NCBI GenBank assembly: GCA_043826455.1
Contig: JBDRQD010000015.1
Span: forward strand, 192,001 to 256,000
Direction of reading: 5' to 3'
DNA: 64,000 bases
Source: Candidatus Bathyarchaeota archaeon
GTDB taxonomy: Archaea > Thermoproteota > Bathyarchaeia > TCS64
Shown: positions 18,368 through 57,001 of the stretch, one piece after another
Position numbering within the stretch: position 1 is the first letter of the stretch
How the letters are laid out: every line of letters begins with the position of its first letter
The notes under the pieces: generated by a model
What the model saw: the letters and a program-made list of their open reading frames with translations, nothing else
Database searches by the model: none
What the model was told of the DNA's origin: nothing
Program-made: the position numbers and the translations under genes

Positions 18368-18375
18368 GTGATGTC

Positions 18376-31070: not shown

Positions 31071-31084
31071 TCGACATCTACTCT

Positions 31085-32014: not shown

Positions 32015-32025
32015 GAGGAAATGAG

Positions 32026-32364: not shown

Positions 32365-32394
32365 TATTAAATACGCTTCAAGGATGCAAATAGG

Positions 32395-32910
32395 ATGGAG
32401 GTTTACTTGTCAGTACCCCCCGAAACAGTAGTCCTCACACTGAAAAACCTGGTCTACCGGCACGCCGAGTACGTGACCCTGGGAGACTACCTAGTGGAGA
32501 AGTACGGCTTCAAGACCATCGAGGAGGTAGAGCACACCATAACAGAGATGAGGGAACTCTACCAGATAGACAGAGGCGACATGGTCCTGGAGCACGAGAC
32601 TGAGGCGCCCATCATACTTGAGGCTGTGGACACCAAGACCGCCTCCCACAAGATCTACGAGGGAAGCTACCTGGACCAGAAGATTAAGATCTATGTGATG
32701 GGGGACATCGCGCGTACGGAGGACCTGGTGGAGATCAGTGACACCGAGAGGTACAAGGTGTACACCGCCCAGTACCAGATGATCAAGCTCCTCGGCGAGA
32801 GCGGCTACGCCCTCCAGAAGTTCTTAGAGAACGTGTCCGTGGAGCTGGGCCTCAAGATAGAGGCCCAGGTGTGGAGCTTCCACAGGGTGAGCACTAGGAT
32901 ACACCAATGA
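32395..32910 (+). CDS. Hypothetical soluble protein inside the hydrogenase cluster
   Basis: 171-aa acidic ORF with typical codon usage and no motif recognised. Confidence 0.75.
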   Translation: MEVYLSVPPETVVLTLKNLVYRHAEYVTLGDYLVEKYGFKTIEEVEHTITEMRELYQIDRGDMVLEHETEAPIILEAVDTKTASHKIYEGSYLDQKIKIYVMGDIARTEDLVEISDTERYKVYTAQYQMIKLLGESGYALQKFLENVSVELGLKIEAQVWSFHRVSTRIHQ

Positions 32911-34351: not shown

Positions 34352-34996
34352 TTATCGGCTCAGCCTCCAATCGCTGATCTCCATGGAGCCGTAGTCCTTG
34401 TGGGACTCCATGACTATGAAGACGCCCACCATGTTGACAAAGATCATCAGCACCAGCAGGAAGGGGACCACTACCATGGGGCTCCTGGCTAGGAGGGGGA
34501 ACAGGGCGTTCTCCGCCATGTTGAGACCCACCAGTACCTTCAGCGGGTCACGGCGGGTAACCATCAGGTACACTGAAAGGGTGAACATGAGGGATATGAA
34601 GGGCAGGGCCTCCAGCTGCTTGGGTATCACCTGATAGTAGTAGACCCACAGGCCCAGGTGGATGAGGACGATGGCGGCGACGATGAGGCTCCCCCTCCTC
34701 ACGTCGATGAGCGGCTTGTCAACGGTATCCGCCGTCCTCACCATCCCCCAGTAGATGATCAGGGGAGAGATGGCGGCCGCAGAGAACCACTCGGCAAAGC
34801 TCGCTATGAACTTGACGAGAGCCTCCATGTGGAGCCCCAGGACCAGGTTAACCAGGACGTACATGAGCTCCACGAAACCTATGGCCGCCGCCTGGAGGGC
34901 CATGAGGGCTATGGTCTGCTTGGTGGATTTGGAGAAGACGCCTAGGAGGGTGGCCACGGTGGACGTCATGAGGGCTATGAATACTATTGTCTCCAT
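34352..34996 (-). CDS. Hydrogenase membrane subunit (HyfE-like)
   Basis: About 7 TM segments, RRDPLKVLVGLNMAENA; sits between the two antiporter-like genes. Confidence 0.7.
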   Translation of the reverse strand: METIVFIALMTSTVATLLGVFSKSTKQTIALMALQAAAIGFVELMYVLVNLVLGLHMEALVKFIASFAEWFSAAAISPLIIYWGMVRTADTVDKPLIDVRRGSLIVAAIVLIHLGLWVYYYQVIPKQLEALPFISLMFTLSVYLMVTRRDPLKVLVGLNMAENALFPLLARSPMVVVPFLLVLMIFVNMVGVFIVMESHKDYGSMEISDWRLSR

Positions 34997-34999
34997 TTT

Positions 35000-36994
35000 T
35001 TATCCCCCCAAGACGATCAGCAGGATCAGTATGATGGCTCCGCCTAGGAACGACAGGAGGGCCGGGTAGTAGCTCTGGTTGACGTCGAGGCGTCTTAGCC
35101 AGTCACATACTCCTGAGAACCATTTTGAGGCCCCATAGTAGAGCCTGTCCACGTCGACTAAGTCTGATACTTGCTTTATCCTCAGTGTGTCGATGAGGGT
35201 CGTGTAGATATGCTCACCTGAGACGTGGCCCAGTAGACCCGGGTCCTCTCCGAAGGCGTAGGGCCTCGAGGCCTCCTCCATGGCTGAGGCGCTGACAGGG
35301 TTTATGGCGATCCTGGACGCAAAGATGAAGGCCCCTATTATGGAGATGTATATGATGCTGATGGCTGCTCCCAGCAGCGGGTTCCAGATGCCGGACGCCG
35401 TAATAATATTTCCCAACGAAATACCTATCTCTATGTTTACACCCAGGTGCTGAGCAGCCGGTACAATCAGGTTGGTCAATAGTATCTGGGGGAAGACGCC
35501 CACTATGATTATGACTATTGAAAGGAACACCATGGGGAGCAGCATGAAGAGGGGGGGCTCCCTTGACTCGGGCTTCTGCTTTGACACGCCGAGGAACGTC
35601 GAGTGGAACATCCTCACTATGGCGATGGTCTTGAAGACGGTCCCAACCAGCAGTATGACTATCAACCCTATCGCCTTTACCTCCAACAGGGCGTGGATCG
35701 TGAGCCAGAAGGCCGTGAAGTAGCCCAGGAACGGGAAACCCACCCAAGACAGCACCCCTATGGCGCCGCACACAGTCGTCAAGGGCATGACCTTAATCAG
35801 CCCACCCAGGCCATCCAGGGAGGTCCTCCCCGTCCGGTATATCGCTGCGCCCACCGCGAAGAACAGGATGCCACAGTAAATCACATGAGGAATCAGCGCG
35901 TAGAGCCCCGCAATCGTCCCCAGGGACGTACCAAGCCCCAGGGCCATCACGGTGCTTCCAAGGCTGGAGATGAGGATGTAGGCGATCAGCTTCTTCACGT
36001 CCTCCTCAAAGATCGAAGGAAGAACAGCCACGAGCAGAGTCACGACCCCCGTGAACGTGATCAGGAAGTGCCAGATGTTTAATTCCCCAAACAGTAGGCT
36101 CCATGGATGGGCCAACGAGAAGGAAGCCGCGACGACTGGTGCGAACACCTGCCCAAAGAACCTTGGGAAAGCGTAGAGCCCCATGAGGAAGCCCACCACG
36201 TGAACGTAGGCTGTTACGGGGGTCGGAGCTATAGTGGCATCAGGCAACCAGGTGTGTAACGGGAACTGGACGGCCTTCGGAAGTATCCCTATGAAGAAAA
36301 GCACCATTGAGACAACCACCATGGTTGTGGGGGAGAGGCTTCCGCTCCACAGGTGAAAGTTCAGCGCCCCTACGACCGGGAATATGACGACGGCTCCGAG
36401 CAGGAACCCCAGGGTCCCCACATGCGTTATGATGAAGGTCTTCATGGAGGCCGACCTACTTTTAGGGTCCTCGTGCCAGAAGGCCACCAACGCGTACGAA
36501 CACAGGCCCGTAATCTCCCAGAACACTATGAGCATAATCATGTTACTGGTGAAGCACGCCCCCAACATGGCTCCCAGAAAGATCAGCATCATGGAGTAGG
36601 CCCAGTTGTAGGCTGTGGAGACGACGCGATACCTGTTCTCCTTGCTGAAGTACTTGACTGAGAAGGTCAAGGACAGGGCGGCGAAGAGGGCTGAAAGCAC
36701 TGTAGGTATCAGCGCCAAGCCGTCAAGATAGAGGCTGAACTCGATCACGCCCACCGGCAAGGGGATAGTCAAGACGGTGCCCATGACAGGGCCGACGCTC
36801 AATACAACCTGTGAGATGATGAGGGTAAGGACCAGTATCAGGTAGGCTGAAATCACACACAGGTCCCTGGCGACACGCCCACCATACCCCGGAACGTGTG
36901 ATACAAAGTAAGCTGCCACTGCGACGATGAACGGCAGCAGTATCACCAATGTTCCAAGGTAAAGGGTCTCGATCAAATCCTCTTCAGGCCCCAA
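35000..36994 (-). CDS. Proton-translocating antiporter-like subunit (MrpA/NuoL/HyfB-like)
   Basis: VFWEITGLCSYALVAFW, KAVQFPLHTWLPDA.IAPTPV, KKLIAY. Confidence 0.92.
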   Translation of the reverse strand: MGPEEDLIETLYLGTLVILLPFIVAVAAYFVSHVPGYGGRVARDLCVISAYLILVLTLIISQVVLSVGPVMGTVLTIPLPVGVIEFSLYLDGLALIPTVLSALFAALSLTFSVKYFSKENRYRVVSTAYNWAYSMMLIFLGAMLGACFTSNMIMLIVFWEITGLCSYALVAFWHEDPKSRSASMKTFIITHVGTLGFLLGAVVIFPVVGALNFHLWSGSLSPTTMVVVSMVLFFIGILPKAVQFPLHTWLPDATIAPTPVTAYVHVVGFLMGLYAFPRFFGQVFAPVVAASFSLAHPWSLLFGELNIWHFLITFTGVVTLLVAVLPSIFEEDVKKLIAYILISSLGSTVMALGLGTSLGTIAGLYALIPHVIYCGILFFAVGAAIYRTGRTSLDGLGGLIKVMPLTTVCGAIGVLSWVGFPFLGYFTAFWLTIHALLEVKAIGLIVILLVGTVFKTIAIVRMFHSTFLGVSKQKPESREPPLFMLLPMVFLSIVIIIVGVFPQILLTNLIVPAAQHLGVNIEIGISLGNIITASGIWNPLLGAAISIIYISIIGAFIFASRIAINPVSASAMEEASRPYAFGEDPGLLGHVSGEHIYTTLIDTLRIKQVSDLVDVDRLYYGASKWFSGVCDWLRRLDVNQSYYPALLSFLGGAIILILLIVLGG

Positions 36995-37607: not shown

Positions 37608-39152
37608 CTACCTTTCAAGGATGAACTCCCTTGAGGGCGCTGTTGGCTTCCCGATGCGCTTCTTCAGCATGTCGTCCCCTACCTTCCGTCCCACCTCCAT
37701 GGGCCTCAGTGTCTCCAGCTGCTTCACGGCGGTGTCCAGCTTGGTGGCCGAGTCGCTGTATATCCTGAACATGGGCTTATCCATCTTCACCTTGTCTCCC
37801 GTCTTAGCGAATAGCCGTATCCCAGCGCCCTTGGCGGCGGGCGTCCCAGCAGCTCTGGCGATCTTGACCAGGTCCCTGTTGTTGAACCACAGTATCCTGC
37901 CGTCCATGGGCGCGGGCGCGTCATAGAAGTGCTTACCCGGGATCAGGTCCTCCGGCTTCACCTCGGGGTCGCCCCCCTGAGCCTCAATGATCTCCTTCAT
38001 CTTCTCCAAGGCCTTGCCCTTAGCGATGATGTCGTGAGCGAGCTGCTTGCCGTTCTCTTGGCCCACCATCTCGAACAAGATACCGGCCAGGTTGGTGGCC
38101 TTGTCCACTAGCTCGTGGGGGCCATCGCCGCACAGGGTCTCCAGGGCCTCCCGGGCCTCAAGGATGGGCCCTATGTTGTATCCTATGGGCTGGCTGCCCT
38201 CGGTGATGGCGCACTCTATCACCATGTCGAAGCGGCTGCCCAGCTCTATGAAGTCGCTGGCCAGCTGCTCGGCCTCGGCTATGGTCTTGATCTTGGCGTC
38301 CACCCCCACGGGAATGTCCACCACCACGTGAGTGCTGCCCATGGCCTTCTTCTTACTCATGATACTGGGGAGCAGCAGCGGGTCTATGCTGAGGGGATAC
38401 TCTATCCTGATGAAGAGGTCATCAGCTGGGGCCAGGTCTATGCTGCCCCCCCACACGATGCAGGCGCCCACGCGTTTGACTATACCCATTATCTCGTCGA
38501 AGGGCACGCTCACAGGCGCCAGGGCCTCCATCCTGTCCGCGGTGCCGGCGGGGCTGGTGATGGCCCTGCTGCTGCTCTTGGGGATGGTGTATCCCGCGGC
38601 GGCCACGATGGGGGTCACCACCAGGGTGGTCTTGTCCCCCGGGACGCCGCCGATGCTGTGCTTGTCCAGGATGGGGCTTCTGTCGAAGCTGATGGTCTTG
38701 CCGCTCCAGATCATGGCGCGGCTGAGGGCCTCCACCTCCTCCATGCTGACCCCGTGGATGTGGAGGGAGGTGACGAAGGCGGCCATCTCTATGTCGCTCA
38801 GGTGACGCTCGACGACATCGCCCACGATGCGCTGTATCTTCCAGGGCGTGAGCCTCTCCCCGTTCACCTTCTCCCTGATGAAGTCCAGGCTCTCGGGGCG
38901 CCTGGCGGGCTCGACCCTCAGGGTGTCACCCTTCTTGAGGTTTAGCCTCTTGGTGACCTCCTTGTATACGCCGAGCTCCCCCTTCACCCCGTTGGAGCTT
39001 ATGTTCAGTATGCACACGGCGTGCTTGTCCTTGTGGCGCAGGAAGACGCGGTCGCTACTATTGACGCTCAGGTCCGCGGCGTCCTGCCTGTTTAATACTA
39101 CTACTAGTGGTCCGCCTGCCTCTATTTCCAGGGGTGTCGCTGTCAGTTCCAT
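37608..39152 (-). CDS. AMP phosphorylase
   Basis: N-terminal beta-barrel extension, DKHSIGGVPG.K, PKSSSRAITSPAGTAD, SIMSKKKA.G, IDIPVG-like motif; clustered with RuBisCO. Confidence 0.93.
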   Translation of the reverse strand: MELTATPLEIEAGGPLVVVLNRQDAADLSVNSSDRVFLRHKDKHAVCILNISSNGVKGELGVYKEVTKRLNLKKGDTLRVEPARRPESLDFIREKVNGERLTPWKIQRIVGDVVERHLSDIEMAAFVTSLHIHGVSMEEVEALSRAMIWSGKTISFDRSPILDKHSIGGVPGDKTTLVVTPIVAAAGYTIPKSSSRAITSPAGTADRMEALAPVSVPFDEIMGIVKRVGACIVWGGSIDLAPADDLFIRIEYPLSIDPLLLPSIMSKKKAMGSTHVVVDIPVGVDAKIKTIAEAEQLASDFIELGSRFDMVIECAITEGSQPIGYNIGPILEAREALETLCGDGPHELVDKATNLAGILFEMVGQENGKQLAHDIIAKGKALEKMKEIIEAQGGDPEVKPEDLIPGKHFYDAPAPMDGRILWFNNRDLVKIARAAGTPAAKGAGIRLFAKTGDKVKMDKPMFRIYSDSATKLDTAVKQLETLRPMEVGRKVGDDMLKKRIGKPTAPSREFILER

Positions 39153-39233
39153 GGCCTGCCCTCAGAACATGGAAGTATGGTCGAGTAAAGCTAAAAATAT
39201 GGTGGATTCCTAGCTCATCTTGGATGCGTTTCT

Positions 39234-40460
39234 ATGCGCTACATCGACTTCGTGGACAAAGAATACCGGCCAAAGGACACCGACCTCCTGTGCAGGTTCC
39301 GCCTGGAGCCCCTGGAACAGCCCTTCGACGTCATAGCTGGGGGCGTGGCGGCTGAGAGCAGCGTCGGCACCTGGACGGAGCTGAGCACCGAGAAGCCCTA
39401 CATGGCGGACAAGGCCGCCAAGGTCTACAGGATCGAGGGTAAAATTATCGACATCGCGTATCCTGTGGAGCTCTTCGAGCCGGGGAACATGCCCAACATC
39501 CTCAGTAGCGTCGCCGGCAACGTCTTCGGCCTGGAGGACATCAAGTACCTCAGACTCAACGACATAACCTTCCCCCGGACGCTGGTGAAGAGCTTCAAGG
39601 GGCCAAGGTACGGGATCAAGGGCGTCAGGGAAGTCACCCGCATCAAGGACAGGCCCCTTGTCGGCACCATCATTAAGCCCAAGCTGGGCCTCAACACCGC
39701 GGACCACGCCCAGGTGGCCTACGACGCTTGGAGTGGCGGCTGCGACGTGGTGAAGGACGACGAGAACCTGAGCAGCCAGAGGTTCAACCCCTTCGAGGAG
39801 AGGGTCGTCCAGACCTTGGAGGCTAGGGACAGGGCCGAGTCTGAGACCGGGGAGCGGAAGGTGTACATGGCCAACGTGACGGCTGAGGTGGAGGAGATGA
39901 AGCGCCGCGCTCAGTACCTGGAGGACCACGGAGGAAGGTACATGATGATCGACATCCTCACCACCGGGTGGAGCAGCCTCCAGACCATGAGGGACGCGGG
40001 ATTCAACCTGGTCCTCCATGCCCACAGGGCCGGCCACGCCGCCTTCACCAGAAGCACAGTCCACGGGATCAGCATGGTGGTCCTGGCCAAGGTGGCCAGG
40101 CTGCTGGGGGTAGATCAGCTCCACGTGGGTACCGCCGTGGGTAAGATGGCGGAGACTGAGGAGGAGGTCAGGGCGAATATCGCGGCCTGCAAGGAGCCGC
40201 TTCACGGCGTCAAGCCGGTGCTACCCGTGGCCAGCGGGGGCCTACACCCCGGAATGGTGCCTGCGCTCATGGAGATATTCGGCGAGGACGTGGTCATCCA
40301 GCTGGGCGGCGGAATCCACGGCCACCCCGACGGCACCGTCAAGGGGGCGACGGCTGCGAGGCAGGCCGTGGACGCAGTCCTCAGAGGATACACGCTGAAG
40401 GATTACGCCAAGGACCACCCTGAGCTTGCCCGAGCCCTCACCAAGTGGAAAGAAATCTAG
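39234..40460 (+). CDS. rbcL: Form III ribulose-1,5-bisphosphate carboxylase
   Basis: AAESSVGTWT, AGNVFG, GTIIKPKLG, VVKDDEN, HAHRAGH, HVGT.VGKM, ASGG, GGGIHGHP. Confidence 0.95.
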   Translation: MRYIDFVDKEYRPKDTDLLCRFRLEPLEQPFDVIAGGVAAESSVGTWTELSTEKPYMADKAAKVYRIEGKIIDIAYPVELFEPGNMPNILSSVAGNVFGLEDIKYLRLNDITFPRTLVKSFKGPRYGIKGVREVTRIKDRPLVGTIIKPKLGLNTADHAQVAYDAWSGGCDVVKDDENLSSQRFNPFEERVVQTLEARDRAESETGERKVYMANVTAEVEEMKRRAQYLEDHGGRYMMIDILTTGWSSLQTMRDAGFNLVLHAHRAGHAAFTRSTVHGISMVVLAKVARLLGVDQLHVGTAVGKMAETEEEVRANIAACKEPLHGVKPVLPVASGGLHPGMVPALMEIFGEDVVIQLGGGIHGHPDGTVKGATAARQAVDAVLRGYTLKDYAKDHPELARALTKWKEI

Positions 40461-40500
40461 GCTCTATCAGCTAAGAAAACTGGCATAGAACGCCCCTTTT

Positions 40501-41412
40501 TCACTTGTCCAGTATCCAAGGGTAGTGCCTGTGAATGGCTTCCAGGATGCTGTGGGGGCTGATGATGCCCTCCTCCGTGATGATCCCGTGGATGTAGTCG
40601 CGGCGCGTCACGTCGAAGGCCGGGTTCCTGATCTTCAAGCCCTCCGGCGGAGCGTCCCATATCTCTCCCGTCTTCCTCTCCTCTATGGCCTCGTACTCGC
40701 CGTGGATGGTCACAGGGTCGAACTTGAGGAGCGTGCCCACAACGTAGAAGGGCACCCTGGCCTCGCCGGCCGCCAGGGCCACTTGGCTGGTGCCTATCTT
40801 GTTGATGACGTTGCCCTCGCTGGTGATAGCGTCGCATCCCACAACCACGAAGTCTATCTCCTTCATGTAGTGGCGGGCCGCCGAGTCCACGATCATGGTG
40901 GTGTCGATGCCCGCCTCCACCAGCTCCACGGCCGTTATCCGTCCCTGGTACTTGGGCCGGGTCTCCGTCTGTATCACCCTGAACCGCTTACCCTGCCTGT
41001 GAGCCTCGATAAGGGTGGCAGTCACCGCACTGCTGTGGCAGTGGGTGAGGATGGTGTTGCCGTCCCTGACCCTCCTTGAGCCGATCTCCACTATCCTTCG
41101 CTGGCTCTCCCTGAAGTGGCCCATTATCTCATTAGAGACCCTTCTAACCGTCGCCTTGAAGACTGCCCCGTCGCCCCAATCCTTGGGGACGTGTGTCTGC
41201 ATATACCTGAGGCCGTTCCTGAGCATGGGCTCGGTTTCCCTGGCCTCCACCAGCTCATGGACCCCCTCATCCAATGCCCTGGAGGCCTCTGCGGAGCTCT
41301 GCGCATCCAGCAGCTCCTTTGTGAGTGCGTCCACGGCGGACAAGGCGATCTTAGTGGCTCCCTGTATCTCCAGGCGCTCGATCTTCCCCGCGGTGTCAGT
41401 TATCCACTTCAA
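40501..41412 (-). CDS. Ribose-1,5-bisphosphate isomerase (eIF2B-alpha-like)
   Basis: EIQGATKIA, R.TEPM.RN, LTHCHSS, ETRP.YQG, VGCDAIT, NKIGT, NPAFDVT. Confidence 0.92.
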   Translation of the reverse strand: MKWITDTAGKIERLEIQGATKIALSAVDALTKELLDAQSSAEASRALDEGVHELVEARETEPMLRNGLRYMQTHVPKDWGDGAVFKATVRRVSNEIMGHFRESQRRIVEIGSRRVRDGNTILTHCHSSAVTATLIEAHRQGKRFRVIQTETRPKYQGRITAVELVEAGIDTTMIVDSAARHYMKEIDFVVVGCDAITSEGNVINKIGTSQVALAAGEARVPFYVVGTLLKFDPVTIHGEYEAIEERKTGEIWDAPPEGLKIRNPAFDVTRRDYIHGIITEEGIISPHSILEAIHRHYPWILDK

Positions 41413-42614: not shown

Positions 42615-43787
42615 ATGGGTATGCTTCAGGCTCAGTCCAGGGAACGGTCTCTCCTACTGCTGATGGTAACTCAGCTCTCCACGGGCTTCAGCATGGGCAT
42701 CATCGAGCCCATTCTGAGTCTCTACGTCAGGAGCCGAGGCCTCACCATCATGGAGGTGGGCCTCCTAGGGACCGCGTCCATGCTGGGCTGGTTCATTTTC
42801 GAGCCCATAATGGGGGTCGTGGCCGACAGCGTCAGGAAACGCACCATGATGGTGGTAGCAATAATCGGCGCCACAGTCATCTACGCAGTGTACCCATTCG
42901 CCACGACCCTGACCCACTTCGCACTACTGGGGTTTGCACGCAGTTCTGTGATGTCCGCCTACTCGATCCCCGTCAAGGCACTCACGGCCGAGCTCCTACC
43001 CCGCCAGGACCGAGGACGGGCCTACGGACGCTTCATGACTGTGGTGAGCCTGGGAGGGATGATAGCCCCTTTGATCGGTGGGTTCATCTCCCAGGCGTCA
43101 GGCTACCTTGTCCCATTCTACGCCTCGGCCGCCGTCGGCCTCGTCGGGTTGACAGCCATAACGGCCATAAGGCACGACGACAGGCCCCAGGAGGGCGGCG
43201 CAGCGCTGAGGGGGTGGAGGGATATCCTCACTGCGCCCGTGCTCAGCGTGTTCAGCGTCAGGGGCATCTTCTTCGTGAACTCCGGGTTCCGCTCCAGCTT
43301 CCTCCCCATATACCTCAACGAGTCACCCCTCTTCAACGCCTCCGAGGCACAGATAGGGGCCTTCTTCACCCTGGTAAGGCTCTCCGGCGCCGTGAGCAGA
43401 TCCATGATAGGCGACCTGTGTGACAGGCTCGGCAACAGGCTGATGATAGTGGCCTCGGTGGCCATGCTCGGGGTGAGCTACGGGGCCCTGCTTATTGGTG
43501 GAGGCGTTTGGGTCATGTACGCAGTAGCCTTGGTGCAGGGCGTCTCTATGGCCGCGGCCGACACGGGCATGATGCTTCACCTCATCTCCGTCATGCCGGC
43601 GGGGAGAACCGGGGTGGTCATGGGGATGTACAGCGAGGCCGAGAACATCGGCGGACTGATCTCGACGCCCACCCTGGGCTACCTTTACGAGAACATCGGG
43701 GCAGGCTCATCGCTGGCAGCGGTGGCCGCCGCCATGTGCCTGAACGCGTTACTGGCTTATCTGGTGATAAGGAAGAAGGAGGACTAG
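42615..43787 (+). CDS. MFS transporter
   Basis: About 12 TM segments, GVVADSVRKR, GDLCDRLGNR. Confidence 0.9.
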   Translation: MGMLQAQSRERSLLLLMVTQLSTGFSMGIIEPILSLYVRSRGLTIMEVGLLGTASMLGWFIFEPIMGVVADSVRKRTMMVVAIIGATVIYAVYPFATTLTHFALLGFARSSVMSAYSIPVKALTAELLPRQDRGRAYGRFMTVVSLGGMIAPLIGGFISQASGYLVPFYASAAVGLVGLTAITAIRHDDRPQEGGAALRGWRDILTAPVLSVFSVRGIFFVNSGFRSSFLPIYLNESPLFNASEAQIGAFFTLVRLSGAVSRSMIGDLCDRLGNRLMIVASVAMLGVSYGALLIGGGVWVMYAVALVQGVSMAAADTGMMLHLISVMPAGRTGVVMGMYSEAENIGGLISTPTLGYLYENIGAGSSLAAVAAAMCLNALLAYLVIRKKED

Positions 43788-44503
43788 GCGCCCTTGGGCA
43801 GGTGTATAGCTATCCTGCAGACGTCATCCCCGTGCATCACCGTCTCCAGGACCTCCACCTCCACAGGCTCCCCTAAGATGTACTCCCAGATGCCCTTGTA
43901 GAACCCTGAGCCGCAGTAGCAGTAGGTCTTGCTCAGGGGCTCACCTCCGTCCTTGATTATGTCCCTTACCCTGGGGCAGTGACAGTAGTGGAACCTCCTG
44001 GCTTCGGGGTCCTCCTCGGCCCAGTAGGCGGGCCAGTCGAAGGGCATCTTGGTTGCTATGATGGTGCTCCCCTTGCGTACACCCGCCACGCCCCAGCCCC
44101 TCTCCTCTATGCCTTCGACCTCCTCGTCGCTCAGATTCAGGAAGCCCTTGGTGTTCTCCAGGAACTGCTCCTGAAGCATGACGTGGACCCTGTCGATGTC
44201 CCCCGTCTCCCGATAGACGCTTCTCATCTCAGCGAGCCGGGGCTTAGGGTACTGGCACGCGCACCCGGTCATGACGTCAGCCGCCTTCCCAGGGTCTATC
44301 TTCTCAAGGCGGCCCAGTAGGGCTCTCGTCCACTCGATGACCTGGGGGCCGGTGTCCTCGGGTTGGTGTTCGGCGCCCTCCATGACGCTCTCGGCGTGGT
44401 CCGGGAGGCGCTCCTCCAGGCACCTGTTGAGCTTGGCGAGCCACTGTTTCTCGAATCCGGGACTCGGACCCCCCTTCTCGAAGTCGTACTGGTCTGCTGG
44501 CAT
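43784..44503 (-). CDS. Cys-rich V4R-like protein (DUF6144-like)
   Basis: GCAC, YCHCP, YCYCGSGFYK.IWE..LG.PV.VEVLETV..GDD.CR. Confidence 0.7.
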   Translation of the reverse strand: MPADQYDFEKGGPSPGFEKQWLAKLNRCLEERLPDHAESVMEGAEHQPEDTGPQVIEWTRALLGRLEKIDPGKAADVMTGCACQYPKPRLAEMRSVYRETGDIDRVHVMLQEQFLENTKGFLNLSDEEVEGIEERGWGVAGVRKGSTIIATKMPFDWPAYWAEEDPEARRFHYCHCPRVRDIIKDGGEPLSKTYCYCGSGFYKGIWEYILGEPVEVEVLETVMHGDDVCRIAIHLPKGA

Positions 44504-48017: not shown

Positions 48018-48707
48018 TCACTTTTCGTGACTCAAGTTTGACTCTATTTTTCTGATTCTTGACTCGATGAACTCAACGTAGTATTCATGACCCTTGTCCG
48101 GCTTCCTGTTCTTCACATATGACTCATAGATATCTGTGGCTTGCTTATCGTCCACAGCCTTCAAAGCATCCAGAACGGCTTGTTTGCTGATGCCCTCTGC
48201 GCCACTGATCAACGCCATGAGGCGGCACACCTCCCCCGCCACGACGGGTGCCATGTCTGGCCTATCCTTGATCAGTTCATCTAACTTGGAGAGGCGCTCC
48301 GTCCTCCATCTTATGAGGGCATCCATGTCGTAGCGGGGTAAAAGGTGGGCTACCTCCTCTCCGTAGACCACTTCGTGGTTCTCCAGGAAGTCGTGCAGGT
48401 ATATGGTCAGGAACTTGAAGCCGTAGCCCATGTTCAATGGGTCCCGGAGGTTCTCCAGCCGCTCCCAGGGCAGGTCGAGGAGCTTGTGCCCGACGCCCTC
48501 GACGCAGCCTCCGATGATTTCATGCAGGCGGACCATGTCGGGGGCCTCGTCCCCTACTATCACCAGGATGTCCAGGTCGCTGAGCCCTGGGACGAAGTCT
48601 CCCCTGATGTAGGAGCCGAAGAGCACGAGGGAGTGTATCTTGGACAACTCCGGATCAACAGTGATCCTCCTCCTGATACATTCCTTGAACGACACGCCGG
48701 TCACCAA
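48018..48707 (-). CDS. Nucleotidyltransferase-domain protein
   Basis: LFGSYIRGDF.PG.SDLDILV, VVYGE. Confidence 0.82.
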   Translation of the reverse strand: MVTGVSFKECIRRRITVDPELSKIHSLVLFGSYIRGDFVPGLSDLDILVIVGDEAPDMVRLHEIIGGCVEGVGHKLLDLPWERLENLRDPLNMGYGFKFLTIYLHDFLENHEVVYGEEVAHLLPRYDMDALIRWRTERLSKLDELIKDRPDMAPVVAGEVCRLMALISGAEGISKQAVLDALKAVDDKQATDIYESYVKNRKPDKGHEYYVEFIESRIRKIESNLSHEK

Positions 48708-48801: not shown

Positions 48802-49479
48802 CTAGCGTCCACTGTACCACTTGATCTTCTTCGTGTAGTAACCGTAGCCTAGGCCTAGGATCACCAGCAGCAGCATGACGTAAGTGTAGATGGCGACTTC
48901 GGGCCTCAGCATGTCCACGAGCCGACCGATTACCAGTTCGAACCTGAAGCTGACGGTCTGTCCGTAGGTTACGCCGAAGGCCGCCAGCAGGAATATACGC
49001 CCTGTATGGTTAACGTACTTGTAGGGTCCCTCTGTCTGTGCCGTGAAGATGAAGTAGGCGGCGGCCGTGACCGTCCCGATCACCATCACCAGGTTGTCGA
49101 GGCTGGTCAGCGGCAGTATGGTTGCGTTTATCTGCCCCAGGAAGTCCGCCATGACGCTCGTCCTTATGGCCAGGCCGAGGCCCGCGCCGACCGTCACAGC
49201 TACAGGGTACCTTGACAGCCAGAGCCACTCCGTCTTGAGCCTGGAGAACAGCATCACGCAGAGGAGTATGGCTGCTATGTACACGTAGTTGCCTTGGAAT
49301 ACAGTGTTGATGGCGTTGGTCCTGACGTAGTTCCAGTTGGTGGCGAAGATGAAGCCACCCAGGATGCCCATGTAGAGGTTCTCGGTGAACTTGCTCAGCG
49401 GGTTGTCGCCTATCAGCACAGAGTACGCGCCTATGGACACGAAGGAGCCTGCGATGAGTCCGAGTAAGAAGCTGTCCAT
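48802..49479 (-). CDS. Uncharacterised polytopic membrane protein, gene 4 of the membrane operon
   Basis: 6-7 TM segments, DNPLSKFTENLYMG, SRYPVA, GRIFLLAAFG..YG. Confidence 0.85.
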   Translation of the reverse strand: MDSFLLGLIAGSFVSIGAYSVLIGDNPLSKFTENLYMGILGGFIFATNWNYVRTNAINTVFQGNYVYIAAILLCVMLFSRLKTEWLWLSRYPVAVTVGAGLGLAIRTSVMADFLGQINATILPLTSLDNLVMVIGTVTAAAYFIFTAQTEGPYKYVNHTGRIFLLAAFGVTYGQTVSFRFELVIGRLVDMLRPEVAIYTYVMLLLVILGLGYGYYTKKIKWYSGR

Positions 49480-50321
49480 TACTTAGCCCCCTCCTCCTTT
49501 CTCGCTATGAAGTACAGTACGTTGCCTAGGACCACCAGGAACGCCCAGAGTAGTCCTCCGAAGTTTGTAGCCATGGCCTGCCCCAGAGCGAGACCAGGCA
49601 TGCCCATCAGGTACTCGTACTCGGCTGAGCCTCTGACCCCACCGATGATGCCAACCATCTGGCCCGAGTTGATGTAGGGCGTGTAGTTGGGCACCTCGTT
49701 GGTGGTGCACATCCCGGTCATGGGAATGCCGAAGGGCGTGACTATCTGTCTTACTCCGAAGGGTATGCTGCCCTCTGAGCCTCCCCACCAGAAGACCGCG
49801 GCGAAATCAGATGCCATGTTGATGTTCCTCATAAGAGGTATCTGGTCTATGGCTGTCCCGAAGTGATCCTCCGTCTTCACACTCCGTATGTCGTTTGCGA
49901 AGGCTGCTACGCCTGACTCTCCGCCCGGGACGTAGCCCATGTGGACCCAGTTCACGCCGTTCTCGGCTGCGACCCCGGAGGGAAGTTTTTCTAGTCCATT
50001 ATTGATGGCTGTCACGGTCCACGCGGCCGTCTCCGTGCCTATGCTGAAGAAAACTAGTTTGACGTCCTTCTTCAGCAGGTGCACGATCTGCACTTCCAGA
50101 CCTGGGCCGCCCTGAGGGTAGGTGGCTGCTCCTAATCCGCCCTCTATGAGGACGACGGAGCCTGCGGGTATGGCGTCGGCGAACTCGAAGGAATCCCGGG
50201 AGTACTGCTGAATATCCATGGGGAGTATAATCGGGTTAAGTATTGGGAAGGCCAGCGCGATGAACATCAACGCGAAGATGATCCTCTGGTCGAGCGCCAG
50301 CATCTTATCCATCAGACTCAT
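49479..50321 (-). CDS. Membrane-anchored protein with extramembrane domain, gene 3
   Basis: N- and C-terminal TM segments; NWVHMGYVPGGE, PYINSGQMVGIIGG.RGSAEYE. Confidence 0.85.
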   Translation of the reverse strand: MSLMDKMLALDQRIIFALMFIALAFPILNPIILPMDIQQYSRDSFEFADAIPAGSVVLIEGGLGAATYPQGGPGLEVQIVHLLKKDVKLVFFSIGTETAAWTVTAINNGLEKLPSGVAAENGVNWVHMGYVPGGESGVAAFANDIRSVKTEDHFGTAIDQIPLMRNINMASDFAAVFWWGGSEGSIPFGVRQIVTPFGIPMTGMCTTNEVPNYTPYINSGQMVGIIGGVRGSAEYEYLMGMPGLALGQAMATNFGGLLWAFLVVLGNVLYFIARKEEGAK

Positions 50322-50971
50322 TCTGATTCCCTCCTCTCTTCCCTGATCCCAAGGTGCTCCTTCTGTCTACCCATGAACACCCTGACGCCCAGACCCATGA
50401 TTCCTAGGCTTGTGCCTATGATCATCCCCCTGAACCCGGCTCCACTCGGGATGTTCCTTATCCATGTACCTAATGGTAAGACGGGCGGGAACAGTATGGC
50501 GCCGATGGGTATGAGCATCAGAAGTATCACCAGGGCACACACGAGCAACACAGCCGAGTTCCAGTTCCTGGCTCTCAGGACCCTGTAGGCGGCGGACGTG
50601 ATGTAGAAGGCGGTAAGCGAGTACAGGGCCGCTCCGATGGGCGACGTCATGTTGTTATAGATCCAAAGGAAAGTAGTGTCCCGTACATCGAGGACGCCTA
50701 GCCCCGCGGTTATGACGAAGGCCAGCACGTAGACGATGCTGTAGTACCACTCGCTTTTCCTTGTCCCTATCTTTTTACTGTGGTATATGGTGAGCACGAT
50801 GGTGCCCAGGATCAGGGCTGCGGCCGAGATAATGGTCACGAAGGACCGGAGCGTCACGTTCAAGCTCGTCACGGGTGCGGGCATCGGGAAGAAGAACTCG
50901 ATGATCATCAACAGCCCGATTATGGCGGTAAGTATTACCGGGATCTGCATTTTAACTAATCTTTCAGACAC
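50318..50971 (-). CDS. Uncharacterised polytopic membrane protein, gene 2
   Basis: About 6 TM segments, SLTAFYITSAAYR.LRAR, WI.NIPSGAGFRG..IG. Confidence 0.85.
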   Translation of the reverse strand: MSERLVKMQIPVILTAIIGLLMIIEFFFPMPAPVTSLNVTLRSFVTIISAAALILGTIVLTIYHSKKIGTRKSEWYYSIVYVLAFVITAGLGVLDVRDTTFLWIYNNMTSPIGAALYSLTAFYITSAAYRVLRARNWNSAVLLVCALVILLMLIPIGAILFPPVLPLGTWIRNIPSGAGFRGMIIGTSLGIMGLGVRVFMGRQKEHLGIREERRESE

Positions 50972-50982
50972 TTCATCTCACC

Positions 50983-51762
50983 TCACATAGAAAACAGGCC
51001 CTTGATGCTCATCCCGAGGGTTATGAGGACGGAACCTAGAACAATCAGAATAGCCGCGATGAATTTGCCGATGTCCTGCCCTGCCAGCGACGAGGACACG
51101 GTCGGGTCCTCTGACACGTAGGCTCCGAGAGCGTACAGCTCCTCGCCTATGAGGCTGTAGTCGCAGATGGCCACCAGGAACGGGATGTTGTGGGTTGTGT
51201 CTGTCCCGCCGAGCATCATCGCCCCCACGCGGGCGGCGTTCTCCGTGAAGATGACGGCCTTGTGGTACCAGCTTCCGAGAAAGAAGGCGCCTGCCATCTC
51301 GTCGCTCCACATGTGGTTGATGATGTACATTCTGTCTGCGCCGTCTGGGAGGTACATCACCGTCTCGTCCAGCTTCAGCTCATCATGCTTGTTCTCAGCC
51401 CTGTAGGCCTCATCCACGATCTCGCTTGCGATGGTGTAAGCCAGACCCTGGGTAACGGGGACGAAGAACTTTGAGCCCAAGTGAGCAGCTTTTCGAGCCG
51501 TGTAGGCCAGGATCTGGAAGGCGGCCACCGTTGGCGCCAGCACGCTGGGGTTATCCATGGTCACGGTGTCCATTAGGTAGTAGGCGGGGCGCCCCATCTC
51601 CACGCACCTACCAAGGATCTCGTCGATGACATCGACAGCCTGCAGTCTCCTGAGTTTAGGTATTTTACCTGAGTATGCTCTTTGCATGTAGTAGATGATT
51701 GATCCTGCGATAACGACTAGGGTCAGAAGGCCGACGAGTCGGCCCTCAACAATTAATACCAA
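50983..51762 (-). CDS. DUF6754-like membrane-anchored protein, gene 1
   Basis: N-terminal TM, IPKLRRL.AVD.IDE..GR.VEMGRP, PFLVAICDYSLIGEELYA..AY, C-terminal TM. Family name from recall. Confidence 0.8.
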   Translation of the reverse strand: MVLIVEGRLVGLLTLVVIAGSIIYYMQRAYSGKIPKLRRLQAVDVIDEILGRCVEMGRPAYYLMDTVTMDNPSVLAPTVAAFQILAYTARKAAHLGSKFFVPVTQGLAYTIASEIVDEAYRAENKHDELKLDETVMYLPDGADRMYIINHMWSDEMAGAFFLGSWYHKAVIFTENAARVGAMMLGGTDTTHNIPFLVAICDYSLIGEELYALGAYVSEDPTVSSSLAGQDIGKFIAAILIVLGSVLITLGMSIKGLFSM

Positions 51763-51946
51763 TTGTTTTCCCCAAAATCAACGTGTTCATATTTACTATA
51801 AATATTTAATCACTGTTTTCTGTATTTTTAAAGAAATATGTAAAAACATTTGAGGGCTTCATGATAATATTTATTTTTTCTAAATAAACGGCGTATTTTA
51901 TGAATAGCGTTAAATATTTTGGAAAAATAGTTTTTCTGATACTAAA

Positions 51947-54508
51947 TTGACGAAGAAAATTACTTCACCTGAAGAGTTCTTCGGCCATCAACTGGGGGCT
52001 GACGGGAAGATCGTCCGGTGGGACAAGATAGTCGAGTACTTCACGAGGCTCCAGAAGGAGTCCAAGCGGATCAAGATCATGGACATGGGGCCCTCAACCG
52101 AGGGCCACCCCTTCCTCATGGTGCTCATCACCAGCGAGGCTAACATGAAGGACCTGGACAAGCTCCAGGACATCAACATCACCCTCACCAACCCTGGTGA
52201 GCTAACAGAGGAAGATGCCAGGCCCCTGGTGGAGGCCGGCAAGGCCGTGGTCATCCAGAGCATGAGCCTCCACGCCACGGAGATCGGGGGCACCCAGATG
52301 GCCCCCGAGTTGGCCTACGAGCTCATCACCGGAGAGGACGAGGAGACCCGCCGCATCAGGGACAACGTGATCAGTGTCATGGTGCCGTGCTTCAACCCCG
52401 ACGGCCAGGTCATGGTCACCGACTGGTACAACAAATACCTGGGCACAGAGTACGAGGGGACGAGCCCGCCCTACCTGTACCACAAGTACACGGGCCACGA
52501 TAACAACAGGGACGCCTTCGCCACCAACATCGTGGAGTCTCAGTACATGGCCCGGCTCATGTTCCACGACTGGCCACCTCAGGCTTACCAGGACCACCAC
52601 CACATGGGCAGCTACGGCGCCCGCCTCTACGTCGCACCATATTCTGATCCAATCCACCCCCACGGCGACCCCCTGGTCTGGCGTGAGCTGGCGTGGTATG
52701 GGGCCCACATGGCCTACAAGCTGGAGCAGGCGGGTAAGAGCGGCATCGTAAACGCAGCCATATTCAGCGGCTGGGCCCACCTGGGCTTCCACTGGATAGG
52801 CATCTACCACAACATACCAAGCATGCTCACCGAGTCGGCGTCAGCCAAGCTGGCCACACCCCTCTTCATCCACCCGGAGCAGCTGAAGGAGGAGACCAAG
52901 GCGGGCACCCTTGTGGGCACCAGGATGATGCCCCACTACAAACCCACCACCAACTTCCCCAACCCTTGGCCCGGCGGCTGGTGGAGGCTCCGCGACATAG
53001 TGGAGCAGCAGAAAATAAGCGCCTGGGCCCTCCTGGACCACATGGCCCGCAACAAGGAGACAGTGCTATGGAACGCGTACCAGAAGGCCGTGAGGCAGAC
53101 CCAGCGGGGCGCCGAGGACCTGGTCACCGCCTACGTGATCCCGGCCTCCCAGCACGACACCCGCACCATGGAGCTCATGGTGGAGAAGCTCATGGCCCAG
53201 AACCTGGAGATGTACAGGGCCAAGAACCCCTTCACAGGGGATGGAGCCGTCTACGAGGAGGGCAGCTACGTGATCCCCCTGGCCCAGCCCAAGATGGGGC
53301 TGGTGAAGACGCTGCTGAGCCGCACAAGGTTCCCCGACGACAGCTTCACCCGGATGCCCGACGGCAGCCCCCACCGCCCCTACGACACGGCCACAGACAC
53401 CATGGCCGAGTTCATGGGCGTGGACGTCTACCCGGTGGGCTACATAACGGATGTGGAGTTGGAGCTCCTCCAGGACTACAAGCAACCGGTGGGCGCTGTG
53501 GACGAGTCCAGCAAGGTGGGGTACCTCCTGGACACCCGGGAGAACCACGCCTTCAAGGCCATCAACATGCTCCTGGCTGAGGGAGTCCCTGTGAAACGGG
53601 TCACGGAGCCCCTAATGGCAGGGGACTTCGAGCTGCCCTCGGGCTGCTTCATAGTGGAGCCAGGCCACGAGGAGAAGCTCACTCGCGCTGCCGAGGCGAA
53701 CGGTGTCAGCTTCCACGCATTGGCCGAGCTACGGGCCGAGACCAGGCCCGTGAAGCCCCAGCGGGTGGGCATGTACCAGCGTTACTGGGGTGGCAACATG
53801 GACGAGGGCTGGACCCGCCTCTGCCTGGAACAGTACCGCTTCAACTACGCGATCCTCATGGACGAGGAAATCAAGAAGGGGGGCCTCAGGGACGGCTACG
53901 ACGTCATCATCCTGCCCAGCGACCCCCCCGCCATTATCACGGGCGGCGACGAGCTGAAGAAGTGGTGGAAGGAGAACCGGCAGGGCTGGGAGCTACCCGA
54001 GTACCCCCCAGAGTACAGGAGCGGCCTGGGCGACGAGGGCAAGAAGGCGTTGAAGGAGTTCGTGGAGAAGGGTGGGACCCTGGTGTGCCTCGGAGACTCC
54101 AGCATGTACGCCGTGGAGGCCCTGGAGCTGAAGGTGGCCAACGTCCTGGAGAAGGTGCCCAGCAGGGATTTCCACTGCCCCGGCAGCACCATCCACATAG
54201 ACGTTGACACTGAGCATCCGGTGGCCTACGGGATGCCGGAGGAGGCCCTGGCCCTGTTCTGGAACAGCCCTGCCTTCAAGATAATCCCCAGCCCGGATAA
54301 CCACAAGTACAGCGTCATAGCCAGCTACCCGGAGTCCGACCTCCTGGAGTCGGGGTGGCTCGTGGGCGAGGAGAGGCTAGCCAACAAGATCGCCGCGCTG
54401 CAGGCCGAGTCAGGGCTGGGCAGGGCGATCCTCATCGGTTTCAGGTGCCAGCACAGGTGCCAGACCGGCGGCACCTTCAAGCTCCTCTTCAACAGCCTCC
54501 TGGACTGA
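51947..54508 (+). CDS. Large M14 metallocarboxypeptidase with C-terminal GATase-like domain
   Basis: SLHATE (HxxE), NPDG, HDNNRD, DHHHMG, MDEGWTR, FVEKGGTLV. Confidence 0.92.
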   Translation: MTKKITSPEEFFGHQLGADGKIVRWDKIVEYFTRLQKESKRIKIMDMGPSTEGHPFLMVLITSEANMKDLDKLQDINITLTNPGELTEEDARPLVEAGKAVVIQSMSLHATEIGGTQMAPELAYELITGEDEETRRIRDNVISVMVPCFNPDGQVMVTDWYNKYLGTEYEGTSPPYLYHKYTGHDNNRDAFATNIVESQYMARLMFHDWPPQAYQDHHHMGSYGARLYVAPYSDPIHPHGDPLVWRELAWYGAHMAYKLEQAGKSGIVNAAIFSGWAHLGFHWIGIYHNIPSMLTESASAKLATPLFIHPEQLKEETKAGTLVGTRMMPHYKPTTNFPNPWPGGWWRLRDIVEQQKISAWALLDHMARNKETVLWNAYQKAVRQTQRGAEDLVTAYVIPASQHDTRTMELMVEKLMAQNLEMYRAKNPFTGDGAVYEEGSYVIPLAQPKMGLVKTLLSRTRFPDDSFTRMPDGSPHRPYDTATDTMAEFMGVDVYPVGYITDVELELLQDYKQPVGAVDESSKVGYLLDTRENHAFKAINMLLAEGVPVKRVTEPLMAGDFELPSGCFIVEPGHEEKLTRAAEANGVSFHALAELRAETRPVKPQRVGMYQRYWGGNMDEGWTRLCLEQYRFNYAILMDEEIKKGGLRDGYDVIILPSDPPAIITGGDELKKWWKENRQGWELPEYPPEYRSGLGDEGKKALKEFVEKGGTLVCLGDSSMYAVEALELKVANVLEKVPSRDFHCPGSTIHIDVDTEHPVAYGMPEEALALFWNSPAFKIIPSPDNHKYSVIASYPESDLLESGWLVGEERLANKIAALQAESGLGRAILIGFRCQHRCQTGGTFKLLFNSLLD

Positions 54509-55699
54509 AACATCTCTCATTATTTTTCTCTCCAAAACGGAGCTCCAGACGCTGGACAGCGCCACGGTCAGGATAATGATGATGAGGATCAGGTCCGGCA
54601 TCATGTAGGCGTACTGGACCCCTGACGAAATAGCCAGCTGAGCCATTACTGCAGCCGCTATCCCCCTGGGCATCATGGCCACCAAAACGTTTCTCTGCCC
54701 CTTCAGTTCCGCGTCACCGATGCTTGTGAGGACCACTGAGATGAATCTGCCAGCTATCAGAAGCACCGTGATCAACGCACCGTATATGATGATGCTGTAG
54801 TTCTCTATGAACAGAATGAGGCCCAGGTACACGAAGAAGTAGGTTCGGATGAAGAAGCTCATCTGGCTCATGAACTTCCTCATCATGCTGCCGACCTCCA
54901 CGCTTTCCTGCATCCGCAGCATCCCACCTATCTCCACGCTGTTACCTAGAACCAGCCCGAAGACCAGGGAGAAGATGGCGCCGTTCCCGCCCACGATCTC
55001 AGTCAAACCGTAGAAGAGTATGGCCACGCTCAAGGTCAGTATGTCGTCGTAGACGTTGTCCCTCAGCTTGCCCAGTATCTTGAGCCACAGGACCCCCAGC
55101 ACCAGCCCGAAGACGACTCCTATGGAGAGGGTGCTGGTGATGCTCTGGGCCATCTCGTTCAGGTTCATGACCCTGGTGTTGCTGAGGATGTCTAGGAACA
55201 TGACACTCACCACGATGACGAGGGCGTCCGTGAACACAGACTCGAGGCTCAGCAGCGTCACGATCCTGTCAGACACGTTCAGCTTCCTCACCAGGCTGAT
55301 GACTATGCTTGAGCTCGTGCCCCCGATCATGGCCCCAAGCATGAGCCCGTAGATGAGGTCCCACCCCAGGAAGGTCCCCGTGAACAGAGCCGTCAGTACC
55401 ATGCTGACTACCACGTTGAGGGCCCCGAGAACCATGGCCTTGGGGCTCTCCCCGAGAACCTTGAAGAGGTTCAGGTTCATGCCACCGTCGAGGAGTATTA
55501 TAAGCAGCGCGAGGCTGCTGAAGATGGGGGCTATCCCAGCGAAGCTGGACGGCTCCACCAGGTGAAAAACTGGGCCAAGGAGAAGCCCGAAGAAGATGAG
55601 GATGAGGTTGTCCGGGATGCCTTTCCGTTTGAAAAGGTAGTTACCGATAAAGCCCAGGCTGATTATGACGCCTGTGAGAATGAAGACGAAGTAGCTCAA
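54410..55699 (-). CDS. Cation:proton antiporter (CPA1/NhaP-like)
   Basis: IPD.LILIFFGLLLGP, ILLDGG, GTSSSIV, LSLESVFTD, PRGIAAAV. Confidence 0.92.
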   Translation of the reverse strand: MSYFVFILTGVIISLGFIGNYLFKRKGIPDNLILIFFGLLLGPVFHLVEPSSFAGIAPIFSSLALLIILLDGGMNLNLFKVLGESPKAMVLGALNVVVSMVLTALFTGTFLGWDLIYGLMLGAMIGGTSSSIVISLVRKLNVSDRIVTLLSLESVFTDALVIVVSVMFLDILSNTRVMNLNEMAQSITSTLSIGVVFGLVLGVLWLKILGKLRDNVYDDILTLSVAILFYGLTEIVGGNGAIFSLVFGLVLGNSVEIGGMLRMQESVEVGSMMRKFMSQMSFFIRTYFFVYLGLILFIENYSIIIYGALITVLLIAGRFISVVLTSIGDAELKGQRNVLVAMMPRGIAAAVMAQLAISSGVQYAYMMPDLILIIIILTVALSSVWSSVLERKIMRDVSVQEAVEEELEGAAGLAPVLAPETDEDRPAQP

Positions 55700-56425: not shown

Positions 56426-57001
56426 TCACGTGACCCTGAACCTGCAGATAGTTGAGCCAGTCACAGCCGACTCCAGAAGCTCCACTTTCACGTGCCGCCC
56501 CAGCACCTGCTCCCAGTACCTCTCCACGAAGCCCATGCTGCAGTTGCAGTAGGTGACGGACATGATCTCGCCTGGGGGCAGCCCCTGTACGAGGCCGCAG
56601 TAGCACCGCACACCGTACGCGTCGGGGGTGTAACCGAAGATGATGGTGTTCCCGTCCCTCTCAACCAGCATTCCTCTAGGCGGGCTCCTAGCCTCAGCAT
56701 TCAGGAAATCCTCCAGCTTCTCGTATCCGGAGCGGCGTTTGAGGGCGCTGGCCACGGGCCCCGTGTGGCTGTGGTCCGCGCAGTTGCGTCCGCAGCTGCT
56801 CATGATCCTCATGCGGGTCTCCAGGTCGAGCAGCCCGTCCATCCTCTCCATGGCGGCCTTCACCCATTGGGCCACATCCTCCTTCGGGCTGGAGTCCCTC
56901 AGGCTGTGTGAGTCCTTCATTATGGCCTCGGATGCCTCTTCTCCCGCCTCCCTCGCGATGGTTGACTTCAGCTCCCTCAGCGGGCCCCTGATGTTCGGCA
57001 T
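56426..57001 (-). CDS. Cys-rich V4R-like protein (DUF6144-like), paralog of 43784..44503
   Basis: CG.NC, RCYCGLV, TYCNCS.GF....WEQVLG..VKVELLES...G...CRF. Confidence 0.72.
   Translation of the reverse strand: MPNIRGPLRELKSTIAREAGEEASEAIMKDSHSLRDSSPKEDVAQWVKAAMERMDGLLDLETRMRIMSSCGRNCADHSHTGPVASALKRRSGYEKLEDFLNAEARSPPRGMLVERDGNTIIFGYTPDAYGVRCYCGLVQGLPPGEIMSVTYCNCSMGFVERYWEQVLGRHVKVELLESAVTGSTICRFRVT

Follow-up and report, generated by a model that had tools for sequence, protein, structure and literature searches.

A four-gene membrane cassette, g1 to g4, lies divergent to an M14 zinc peptidase gene at positions 48802 to 54508 of the 64,000-nucleotide stretch of Candidatus Bathyarchaeota DNA analysed here (the window; Table 1). 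We find that the cassette system is real and that the literature searched describes no counterpart of it. In our preferred reading, to which we give about an even chance, the cassette is an ATP-driven importer with interchangeable membrane modules: g3 binds its ligand outside the cell, g2 and g4 conduct it, g1 couples to a long GlmL-type protein and its partner p391 that are shared between modules, and this copy supplies the M14 peptidase. The reading draws on the order, paralogy and linkage of the genes, on their co-occurrence, and on predicted folds and charge bias.

The four genes form a conserved unit

The tight coupling of g1 to g4, with an 11-nt gap and overlaps of 4 nt and 1 nt, follows from the coordinates of the open reading frames (ORFs). 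A hydropathy scan finds two terminal hydrophobic segments each in g1 and g3, in agreement with the transmembrane (TM)-soluble-TM arrangement that the original prediction assigned to them, and five segments each in g2 and g4, which are polytopic as proposed; alignment-averaged profiles suggest 6 TM helices for g2 and 6-7 for g4. The source genome (G000, Ca. Bathyarchaeia, 97.7% complete; other G-numbers denote comparison genomes and L-numbers cassette loci) encodes eight cassettes, every one in the order g1-g2-g3-g4, with 23-36% identity to the window's. All four genes stand in this order in 69 of the 80 genome loci found with the C46 paralogue in Bathyarchaeia, Culexarchaeia, Nitrososphaerota and Bacillota; eight of the other 11 are cut by contig ends, two are without one called ORF, and at L023 g3 and g4 are missing. 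Furthermore, 69 metagenome loci were found with a bacterial g1 carrying an N-terminal extension, and 44 of them hold the full ordered cassette. Of the rest, most are short; at L154 g1 comes last (g2-g3-g4-g1), and the later subunits are missing from L158, L160 and L162 although there is room for them. Subunit distances correlate (r 0.74-0.80) over 31 non-redundant cassettes drawn from 146 complete ones plus the window's, copies reach 8-11 per genome, and g3 has 4654 relatives at 50% clustering. The proposal of a conserved four-gene unit of an undescribed class is supported.

Some metagenome loci are more elaborate. L147 holds several tandem cassettes with five g1 matches, and enlarged g3 proteins of 420-560 aa occur among L147, L136, L138, L141 and L149; two of these, when scanned, gave no Pfam match at E <= 1e-8.

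The DUF6754 label that had been proposed for the operon is confirmed for g1, which is a full-length member of PF20539 (191.8 bits, gathering cut-off 27, residues 8-252), and a relative at 92% identity carries the label Ca. Bathyarchaeota archaeon RBG_16_57_9. No Pfam or NCBIfam family is matched above its cut-off by g2, g3 or g4; in the Atlas, the neighbours of g3 are hypothetical proteins and g2 is without any named match. At these cut-offs no ABC ATPase, permease or binding-protein family is found in g1-g4, and no TRAP, MFS or APC carrier family (the best for g4 is MMSYN1_0478, 12.8 bits against a cut-off of 170), in line with what had been judged from motifs. Among 68 relatives of g2, 22 give a weak TMD0_ABC match, the best at E 1.2e-5; the window's g2 gives none. 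The parts that make up an energy-coupling factor (ECF) transporter (EcfA/A', EcfT, S-component) gave no family match for g1-g4 or for g2 and g4 relatives, and g1-g4, the long GlmL, p391 and the M14 peptidase gave no match at E < 0.01 among Protein Data Bank (PDB) sequences.

The soluble domains of g1 and g3 are probable paralogues with opposite predicted faces

AlphaFold2 models of g3 (pLDDT 96) and g1 (pLDDT 93) both consist of a helix, an alpha/beta domain and a second helix. Neither model has a Foldseek match at E <= 0.001; in the fold search, the g3 and g1 domains reach best Z scores of 9.6 and 10.1, in both cases with generic Rossmann-type folds (MTH777, KTN/RCK, SDR, sirtuins). RCK/KTN domains (KtrA, TrkA) and MTH777 are among the top matches of both domains (Z 8.4-9.8, root-mean-square deviation 3.0-3.8 over 114-139 aligned residues), tied with SDRs, sirtuins and sugar-binding proteins at 4-12% identity; the RCK fold itself scores Z 8.4-9.4, tied with other Rossmann folds. 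Unlike in RCK/KTN, no GxGxxG occurs among the conserved columns of the g1 and g3 domains. The g3 domain also matches sugar-binding proteins over one of their lobes, at Z 7.6-8.2, scores that many Rossmann folds share. A weak profile match between g1 and g3 (P 61-63%, E 7-8e-5) adds to their common Rossmann-like fold, and the two are probably distant paralogues. A fold type common to g1 and g3 is supported. Paralogy of g2 and g4 is not significant (P 0.1% and 3.8%), so we do not claim full A-B-A'-B' pseudo-symmetry for the cassette.

Lysine and arginine (K/R) residues flank the domain side in 97/97 g1 sequences and the terminal side in 144/150 g3 sequences. By the positive-inside rule, these counts place the two domains on opposite faces of the membrane: g1 is predicted to have an N-out TM helix, a conserved cytoplasmic Rossmann-like domain and a C-terminal TM helix, and g3 an N-in TM helix, a variable Rossmann-like domain outside the cell and a C-terminal TM helix. 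The signal-like start and N-terminal extension of bacterial g1 relatives, read by eye, agree with the predicted sidedness of g1; we take this extension to be FN3, and it gave no FN3 match in Pfam at E <= 1e-8. A ligand cleft shared by g1 and g3, a possibility that the original prediction had raised, is unlikely and was rejected, since domains on opposite faces cannot form one cleft.

The g1 domain is the more conserved of the two, with 47.5% mean identity and 51/183 columns conserved at 80%, against 29.9% and 21/203 columns in g3. The conserved surface of g1 includes the motifs DYxLIGEE and GRxxEMGxP; the g3 domain spans residues 35-243. A conserved inner and a variable outer domain are what one would expect if the former offers a shared face for docking and the latter a diversified one for binding. 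The candidate ligand-binding subunit is g3.

The cassette tracks a long GlmL-type protein and p391

In G000, two cassettes have as neighbours a PF13941 (GlmL/MutL) gene of ~610 aa and, after it, p391, a gene of ~390 aa; a gene for a small soluble protein, acc5, is next to five cassettes. The long GlmL-type protein matches PF13941 at E 6.9e-117 and retains motifs that we take to be of ASKHA type, and is likely an ATPase. Among 12 p391 sequences, RnfC_N is found in 9, Biotin_lipoyl in 8 and KOW in 1, which points to a barrel-sandwich hybrid domain of RnfC_N/biotin-lipoyl type; the KOW/Spt5/NusG match is weak (E 0.013 and weaker). At L053-L055 and L019 the cassette, GlmL, p391 and acc5 stand together as seven genes on one strand.

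The association holds across genomes. DUF6754 and PF13941 are both present in 28 of 41 relatives, both absent from 9 and discordant in 4 (concordant 37/41), the four being genomes of 62-76% completeness; among 17 high-quality genomes, 10 have both, 7 have neither and none is discordant. In a draw of 121 genomes from the phylum, the same 3 carry DUF6754 and p391 (121/121 concordant). Within one Bacillota class of 14 genomes, all of which have classic-type GlmL, each of the seven with DUF6754 has a long GlmL ~3 kb downstream and p391, and p391 occurs in only one (G061) of the seven without it (13/14 concordant). Gene counts give several modules for each energising gene set: 8:1 in G050 (eight DUF6754 genes, of which one has a stop, to a single ATPase pair at a distance of at least 78 kb), 4:1 in G051 (one pair, on another contig), 7:1 in G138 (one p391, unlinked) and 8:3 in G000. 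The original prediction had recognised no ABC ATPase in the unit; as the cassette co-occurs with the long GlmL-type ASKHA protein, a likely ATPase, and its partner p391, encoded elsewhere in G000, the unit is not free of an ATPase. The ATPase pair is unlinked to many cassettes, and the best reading of the cassette in the window is accordingly that of a satellite module from which acc5 was lost locally. The acc5 gene follows g4 in 5 of 12 loci orthologous to the window's cassette.

The long form shares the PF13941 match and ASKHA-type motifs with the GlmL/MutL proteins of glutamate mutase and Or-4 (PF13941, TIGR01319, NF040745, NF040744). It differs from them in length (~600 against ~450 aa) and in context, as it precedes p391 and its linkage is with DUF6754 cassettes instead of a B12 mutase. 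A role as reactivase of a B12 mutase was rejected for the G000 long GlmL, in that neither glutamate mutase E (GlmE) nor KamD/OraE (lysine/ornithine aminomutase) was detectable in G000 with controls positive. GlmE was likewise not found in G050, G051 or G138, with positive controls in G048 and G049, and G048 has both arrangements: its short GlmL adjoins GlmE and its long GlmL adjoins a cassette. The long-form profile matched 7999/7999 candidates scored, short forms included.

A further long GlmL-like gene, the third in the genome, is found at G000:C47:16821-19456 together with a p391 of reduced length (288 aa, C-terminal part missing). It lies beside amidohydrolase-like genes, on a contig that holds no cassette, and divergent GlmL copies like it are found across the genus. 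Small hydrophobic ORFs (L001:10286-10711, L002:7151-7573, L002:10863-11387 and L003:11707-12111) recur beside G000 cassettes next to acc5; three of the four proteins have a weak DUF3792 match, and they are possibly a further accessory subunit.

The M14 peptidase and the catabolic neighbourhood

The 853-aa M14 peptidase divergent to g1 is confirmed (PF00246, 51 bits, cut-off 21.6) and, as predicted, has no hydrophobic segment or signal peptide. It carries HxxE at 109-112, NNR at 186 and DHH at 216, which we take to be the zinc-ligand and catalytic motifs of the family. The 184-nt spacer between the two genes is as AT-rich as claimed; at 22.8% GC it is the lowest among the genome's 123 divergent spacers (mean 44%). 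A TATA-like element ~35-40 nt ahead of g1 is kept in the spacer alignment of orthologues, to which L101 contributes the upstream part only; from its likeness to what we take as the archaeal TATA consensus, we infer a promoter role.

The window's cassette subfamily comprises 12 orthologous loci in 11/31 genomes of the genus. An M14 gene (60-86% identity) lies within ~5 kb of seven of the 12, divergent upstream in four and convergent downstream in three; at four of the five loci without it, a contig end is reached within 2 kb in at least one direction, and at L095 no M14 gene is present in the 13 kb examined. Furthermore, a second M14 clade (~38% identity) is divergent to an L001-type cassette in G000 and eight relatives, the nine genomes representing one inherited arrangement. 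The proposed link between peptidase and cassette thus holds for the window's subfamily and one other, and not for the DUF6754 family as a whole. A permutation of the two of eight G000 cassettes within 1.5 kb of an M14 gene gives P 0.0008, which is post hoc and carries little weight.

Neighbours within 2.5 kb of 87 genome loci include amidohydrolases (one family in 19 loci), D-aminoacylase-like enzymes, creatininases, aminotransferases, thiohydantoin desulfurase-like proteins, 5-oxoprolinase, gamma-glutamyltransferase and hydroxyproline dehydratase, together with many unrelated genes; S9, S58 and TldD peptidases are also among the cassette neighbours. Catabolic neighbours of amide and amino-acid type thus occur in archaea and Bacillota, as expected, and one bacterial lineage is devoid of catabolic enrichment. 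Cassettes stand immediately beside hydroxyproline dehydratase and its activase (L075:13128-16622), gamma-glutamyltransferase (L080:7870-9498) and 5-oxoprolinase/OadA-like genes (L042:6177-9899), and these neighbours give concrete guesses at substrates for other copies. At the orthologous locus L101, OppD/F-like genes lie directly upstream of the cassette.

Contigs from RNA libraries of ~95% relatives in three studies cover the cassette (four runs examined out of 21, from 16 studies, with small shares). They stop at 51755, 51763 and 51755, near the start of g1, one of them with an adapter end. The same runs cover the L002 cassette, which had not been used to find them, and patches of GlmL and p391; set X1 also covers the genes flanking the cassette. 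Some runs leave M14, GlmL or the flanks uncovered, which is no evidence either way. Together, these contigs are a weak hint of cassette expression. A CPA1 Na+/H+ antiporter ORF (54410-55699, minus strand) overlaps the 3' end of the M14 gene by 99 nt; it is probably an insertion, because it is absent there in the relative L092 and is skipped by an RNA contig.

A proposed model: an importer with interchangeable modules

The proteins g1 to g4 likely assemble as one membrane complex that would probably import a peptide- or amide-like nutrient. The variable outer domain of g3 would capture the solute, its path would be formed by g2 and g4 together with the anchor helices of g1 and g3, four in all, and the ATPase pair would dock on, and couple to, the conserved inner domain of g1. 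The predicted ATPase, long GlmL, and its partner p391, encoded elsewhere in the genome, would power the module, one pair presumably serving several interchangeable modules. The window's copy may feed the divergently transcribed cytoplasmic M14 peptidase, as the linkage suggests. In group II ECF transporters, several membrane substrate modules have been proposed to share one ATP-hydrolysing module (PMC7755397, PMC4820897). The likeness is in logic only, that of many modules per energising unit, here from gene counts; unlike ECF systems, the cassette is without an ABC ATPase, EcfT or S-component family match, its putative motor has an ASKHA fold, and its module comprises four subunits and is predicted to expose soluble domains on both faces.

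Several observations weigh against this model. GlmL lies inside the examined stretch at only 13/87 genome loci, and none of GlmL, p391 and acc5 is found at any of the 69 metagenome loci with the extended bacterial g1, including 14 that span at least 9.4 kb on both sides; these 69 loci have housekeeping neighbours (MazG-like, phosphomannomutase, Wzi-like and similar). Because related genomes are not independent of one another, the co-occurrence counts are descriptive. M14 relatives occur in 30/31 genus genomes, against 11/31 for the cassette subfamily, and the window's M14 clade is found at 0/80 of the genome loci identified with the C46 paralogue. G000 is peptidase-rich genome-wide, so no genome-wide null supports the catabolic enrichment, and it already encodes OppA-type binding proteins. 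The generic Rossmann-type fold matches of g1 and g3 indicate no function, and the RNA evidence consists of contigs alone, without a DNA control. Finally, the window's g1 deviates at 16 of the 51 family-conserved positions, keeping 35; its segment 163-174 is variant throughout its subfamily and is therefore not a sign of decay.

Alternative explanations

With ligand-type domains predicted on both faces, fold ties to RCK/KTN regulatory domains, a weak KOW match in p391 and one cytoplasmic pair common to many modules, the cassette could be a transmembrane sensor in which g3 binds a nutrient outside and g1 passes the signal on, within the cell, to p391 with its KOW element and to the ASKHA protein, the two regulating catabolic genes or enzymes without transport. 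We consider this unlikely: two 6-TM subunits and four anchors exceed the membrane mass that most sensors generally need, the conserved neighbours include no DNA-binding or kinase gene, and the cassettes lie in or beside catabolic operons, as transporters do. A group translocation system, with the module as facilitator, the ASKHA protein phosphorylating or activating the incoming solute and p391 as carrier, would make use of the barrel-sandwich hybrid domain of p391 and of the amide-cleaving enzymes frequent near cassettes, and ASKHA proteins include kinases and ATP-dependent amidohydrolases. It is nonetheless improbable: one GlmL serves 4-8 divergent modules set beside widely differing pathways, as would be expected of a general motor more than of a kinase specific to one substrate. 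We give similarly little chance to an ion-coupled secondary transporter or channel that the ATPase pair merely assembles, resets or regulates. The near-strict co-occurrence with GlmL at genome level and the shared operons speak against it, as does the lack of significant g2/g4 homology (P 3.8%), even though g1/g3, and likewise g2/g4, are predicted to be oppositely oriented, which is reminiscent of inverted-repeat carriers, and the ATPase is missing from most cassette loci. In its favour as well, MutL/GlmL is described as a reactivating chaperone of glutamate mutase (PMC4682846).

The extended-g1 bacterial lineage, in which cassettes occur in tandem and beside housekeeping genes and some outer g3 domains are enlarged, would suit an export or cell-envelope machine whose catabolic neighbours are incidental in peptidase-rich genomes. 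That the M14 link outlasts rearrangement in the window's subfamily and recurs with a second M14 clade, that direct operon neighbours in Bacillota are catabolic, and that copy number is as high as it is, make such a machine a poor prospect too. An Rnf/Nqr-like ion-pumping redox complex is brought to mind by two ~210-aa 6-TM subunits of opposite predicted orientation and by the RnfC_N/NqrA_N-like domain of p391. Rnf/Nqr membrane subunits bind 2Fe-2S through conserved membrane cysteines, however, and neither in g2 and g4 nor in the g1 and g3 domains does any cysteine reach 80% conservation; furthermore, 68 g2 and 66 g4 sequences gave no Rnf/Nqr family match and no redox gene is a fixed neighbour, which makes this explanation very improbable indeed.

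Features of the region and other genes of the window

Table 1. Coordinates of the cassette, the spacer and the divergent peptidase gene in the window.
Feature	Position	Strand	Length and basis
g1 = DUF6754	50983-51762	-	259 aa; Pfam PF20539 E 1.6e-56, K/R sidedness
g2, polytopic, no family	50318-50971	-	217 aa; ~6 TM, predicted N-in
g3, no family	49479-50321	-	280 aa; AlphaFold2 model, K/R sidedness
g4, polytopic, no family	48802-49479	-	225 aa; 6-7 TM, predicted N-out
Divergent spacer	51763-51946	.	184 nt, AT-rich
TATA-like element	51791-51808	-	conserved among orthologues
M14 zinc peptidase	51947-54508	+	853 aa; PF00246 E 2.1e-13

An orphan nucleotidyltransferase gene (48018-48707) lies just downstream of g4. 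Elsewhere in the window, AMP phosphorylase-like, RuBisCO large chain and IF-2B-family isomerase genes are grouped at 37608-41412, which we take to be an archaeal nucleoside salvage cluster. There is a NurA-HerA-Mre11-Rad50-type operon at 15495-21686, membrane hydrogenase/Mrp-like genes occupy both strands of 29856-36994, and two Cys-rich DUF6144 genes are found at 43784-44503 and 56426-57001.

Relation to known systems and significance

DUF6754 is a family without a described function, and the partners g2-g4 have no family. We found no paper naming DUF6754 in the literature searched and none describing the four-gene cassette system, most subscription journals and supplements lying outside the search. 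To our knowledge, no ASKHA-fold ATPase is known to power solute transport. Peptide fermentation and Opp/Dpp-type peptide transporters have been described for Bathyarchaeota metagenome-assembled genomes (PMC9534799). The proposed cargo is what the cassette would have in common with Opp/Dpp ABC importers; unlike them, it is without a binding-protein, permease or ABC ATPase family.

A bolder proposition, which we advance tentatively and rate somewhat short of an even chance, is that the cassettes represent primary active transporters of a new class, interchangeable four-subunit importers that have paralogous domains on both faces and are driven by an ATPase of actin/Hsp70 fold (not ABC). They would form a main route for peptides and amides in Bathyarchaeia and other anaerobes, with this copy dedicated to the substrate of the M14 peptidase. 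To this picture the window adds the subfamily-level M14 link and the counts of many modules to one ATPase. With 4654 g3 clusters and not one described member, the family would be new even if it acted as a sensor or a secondary carrier. If true, ASKHA-driven transport would add a new class of primary transporter, correct the 'glutamate mutase L' label on a large protein family and give a testable uptake route for peptide-fermenting Bathyarchaeia.

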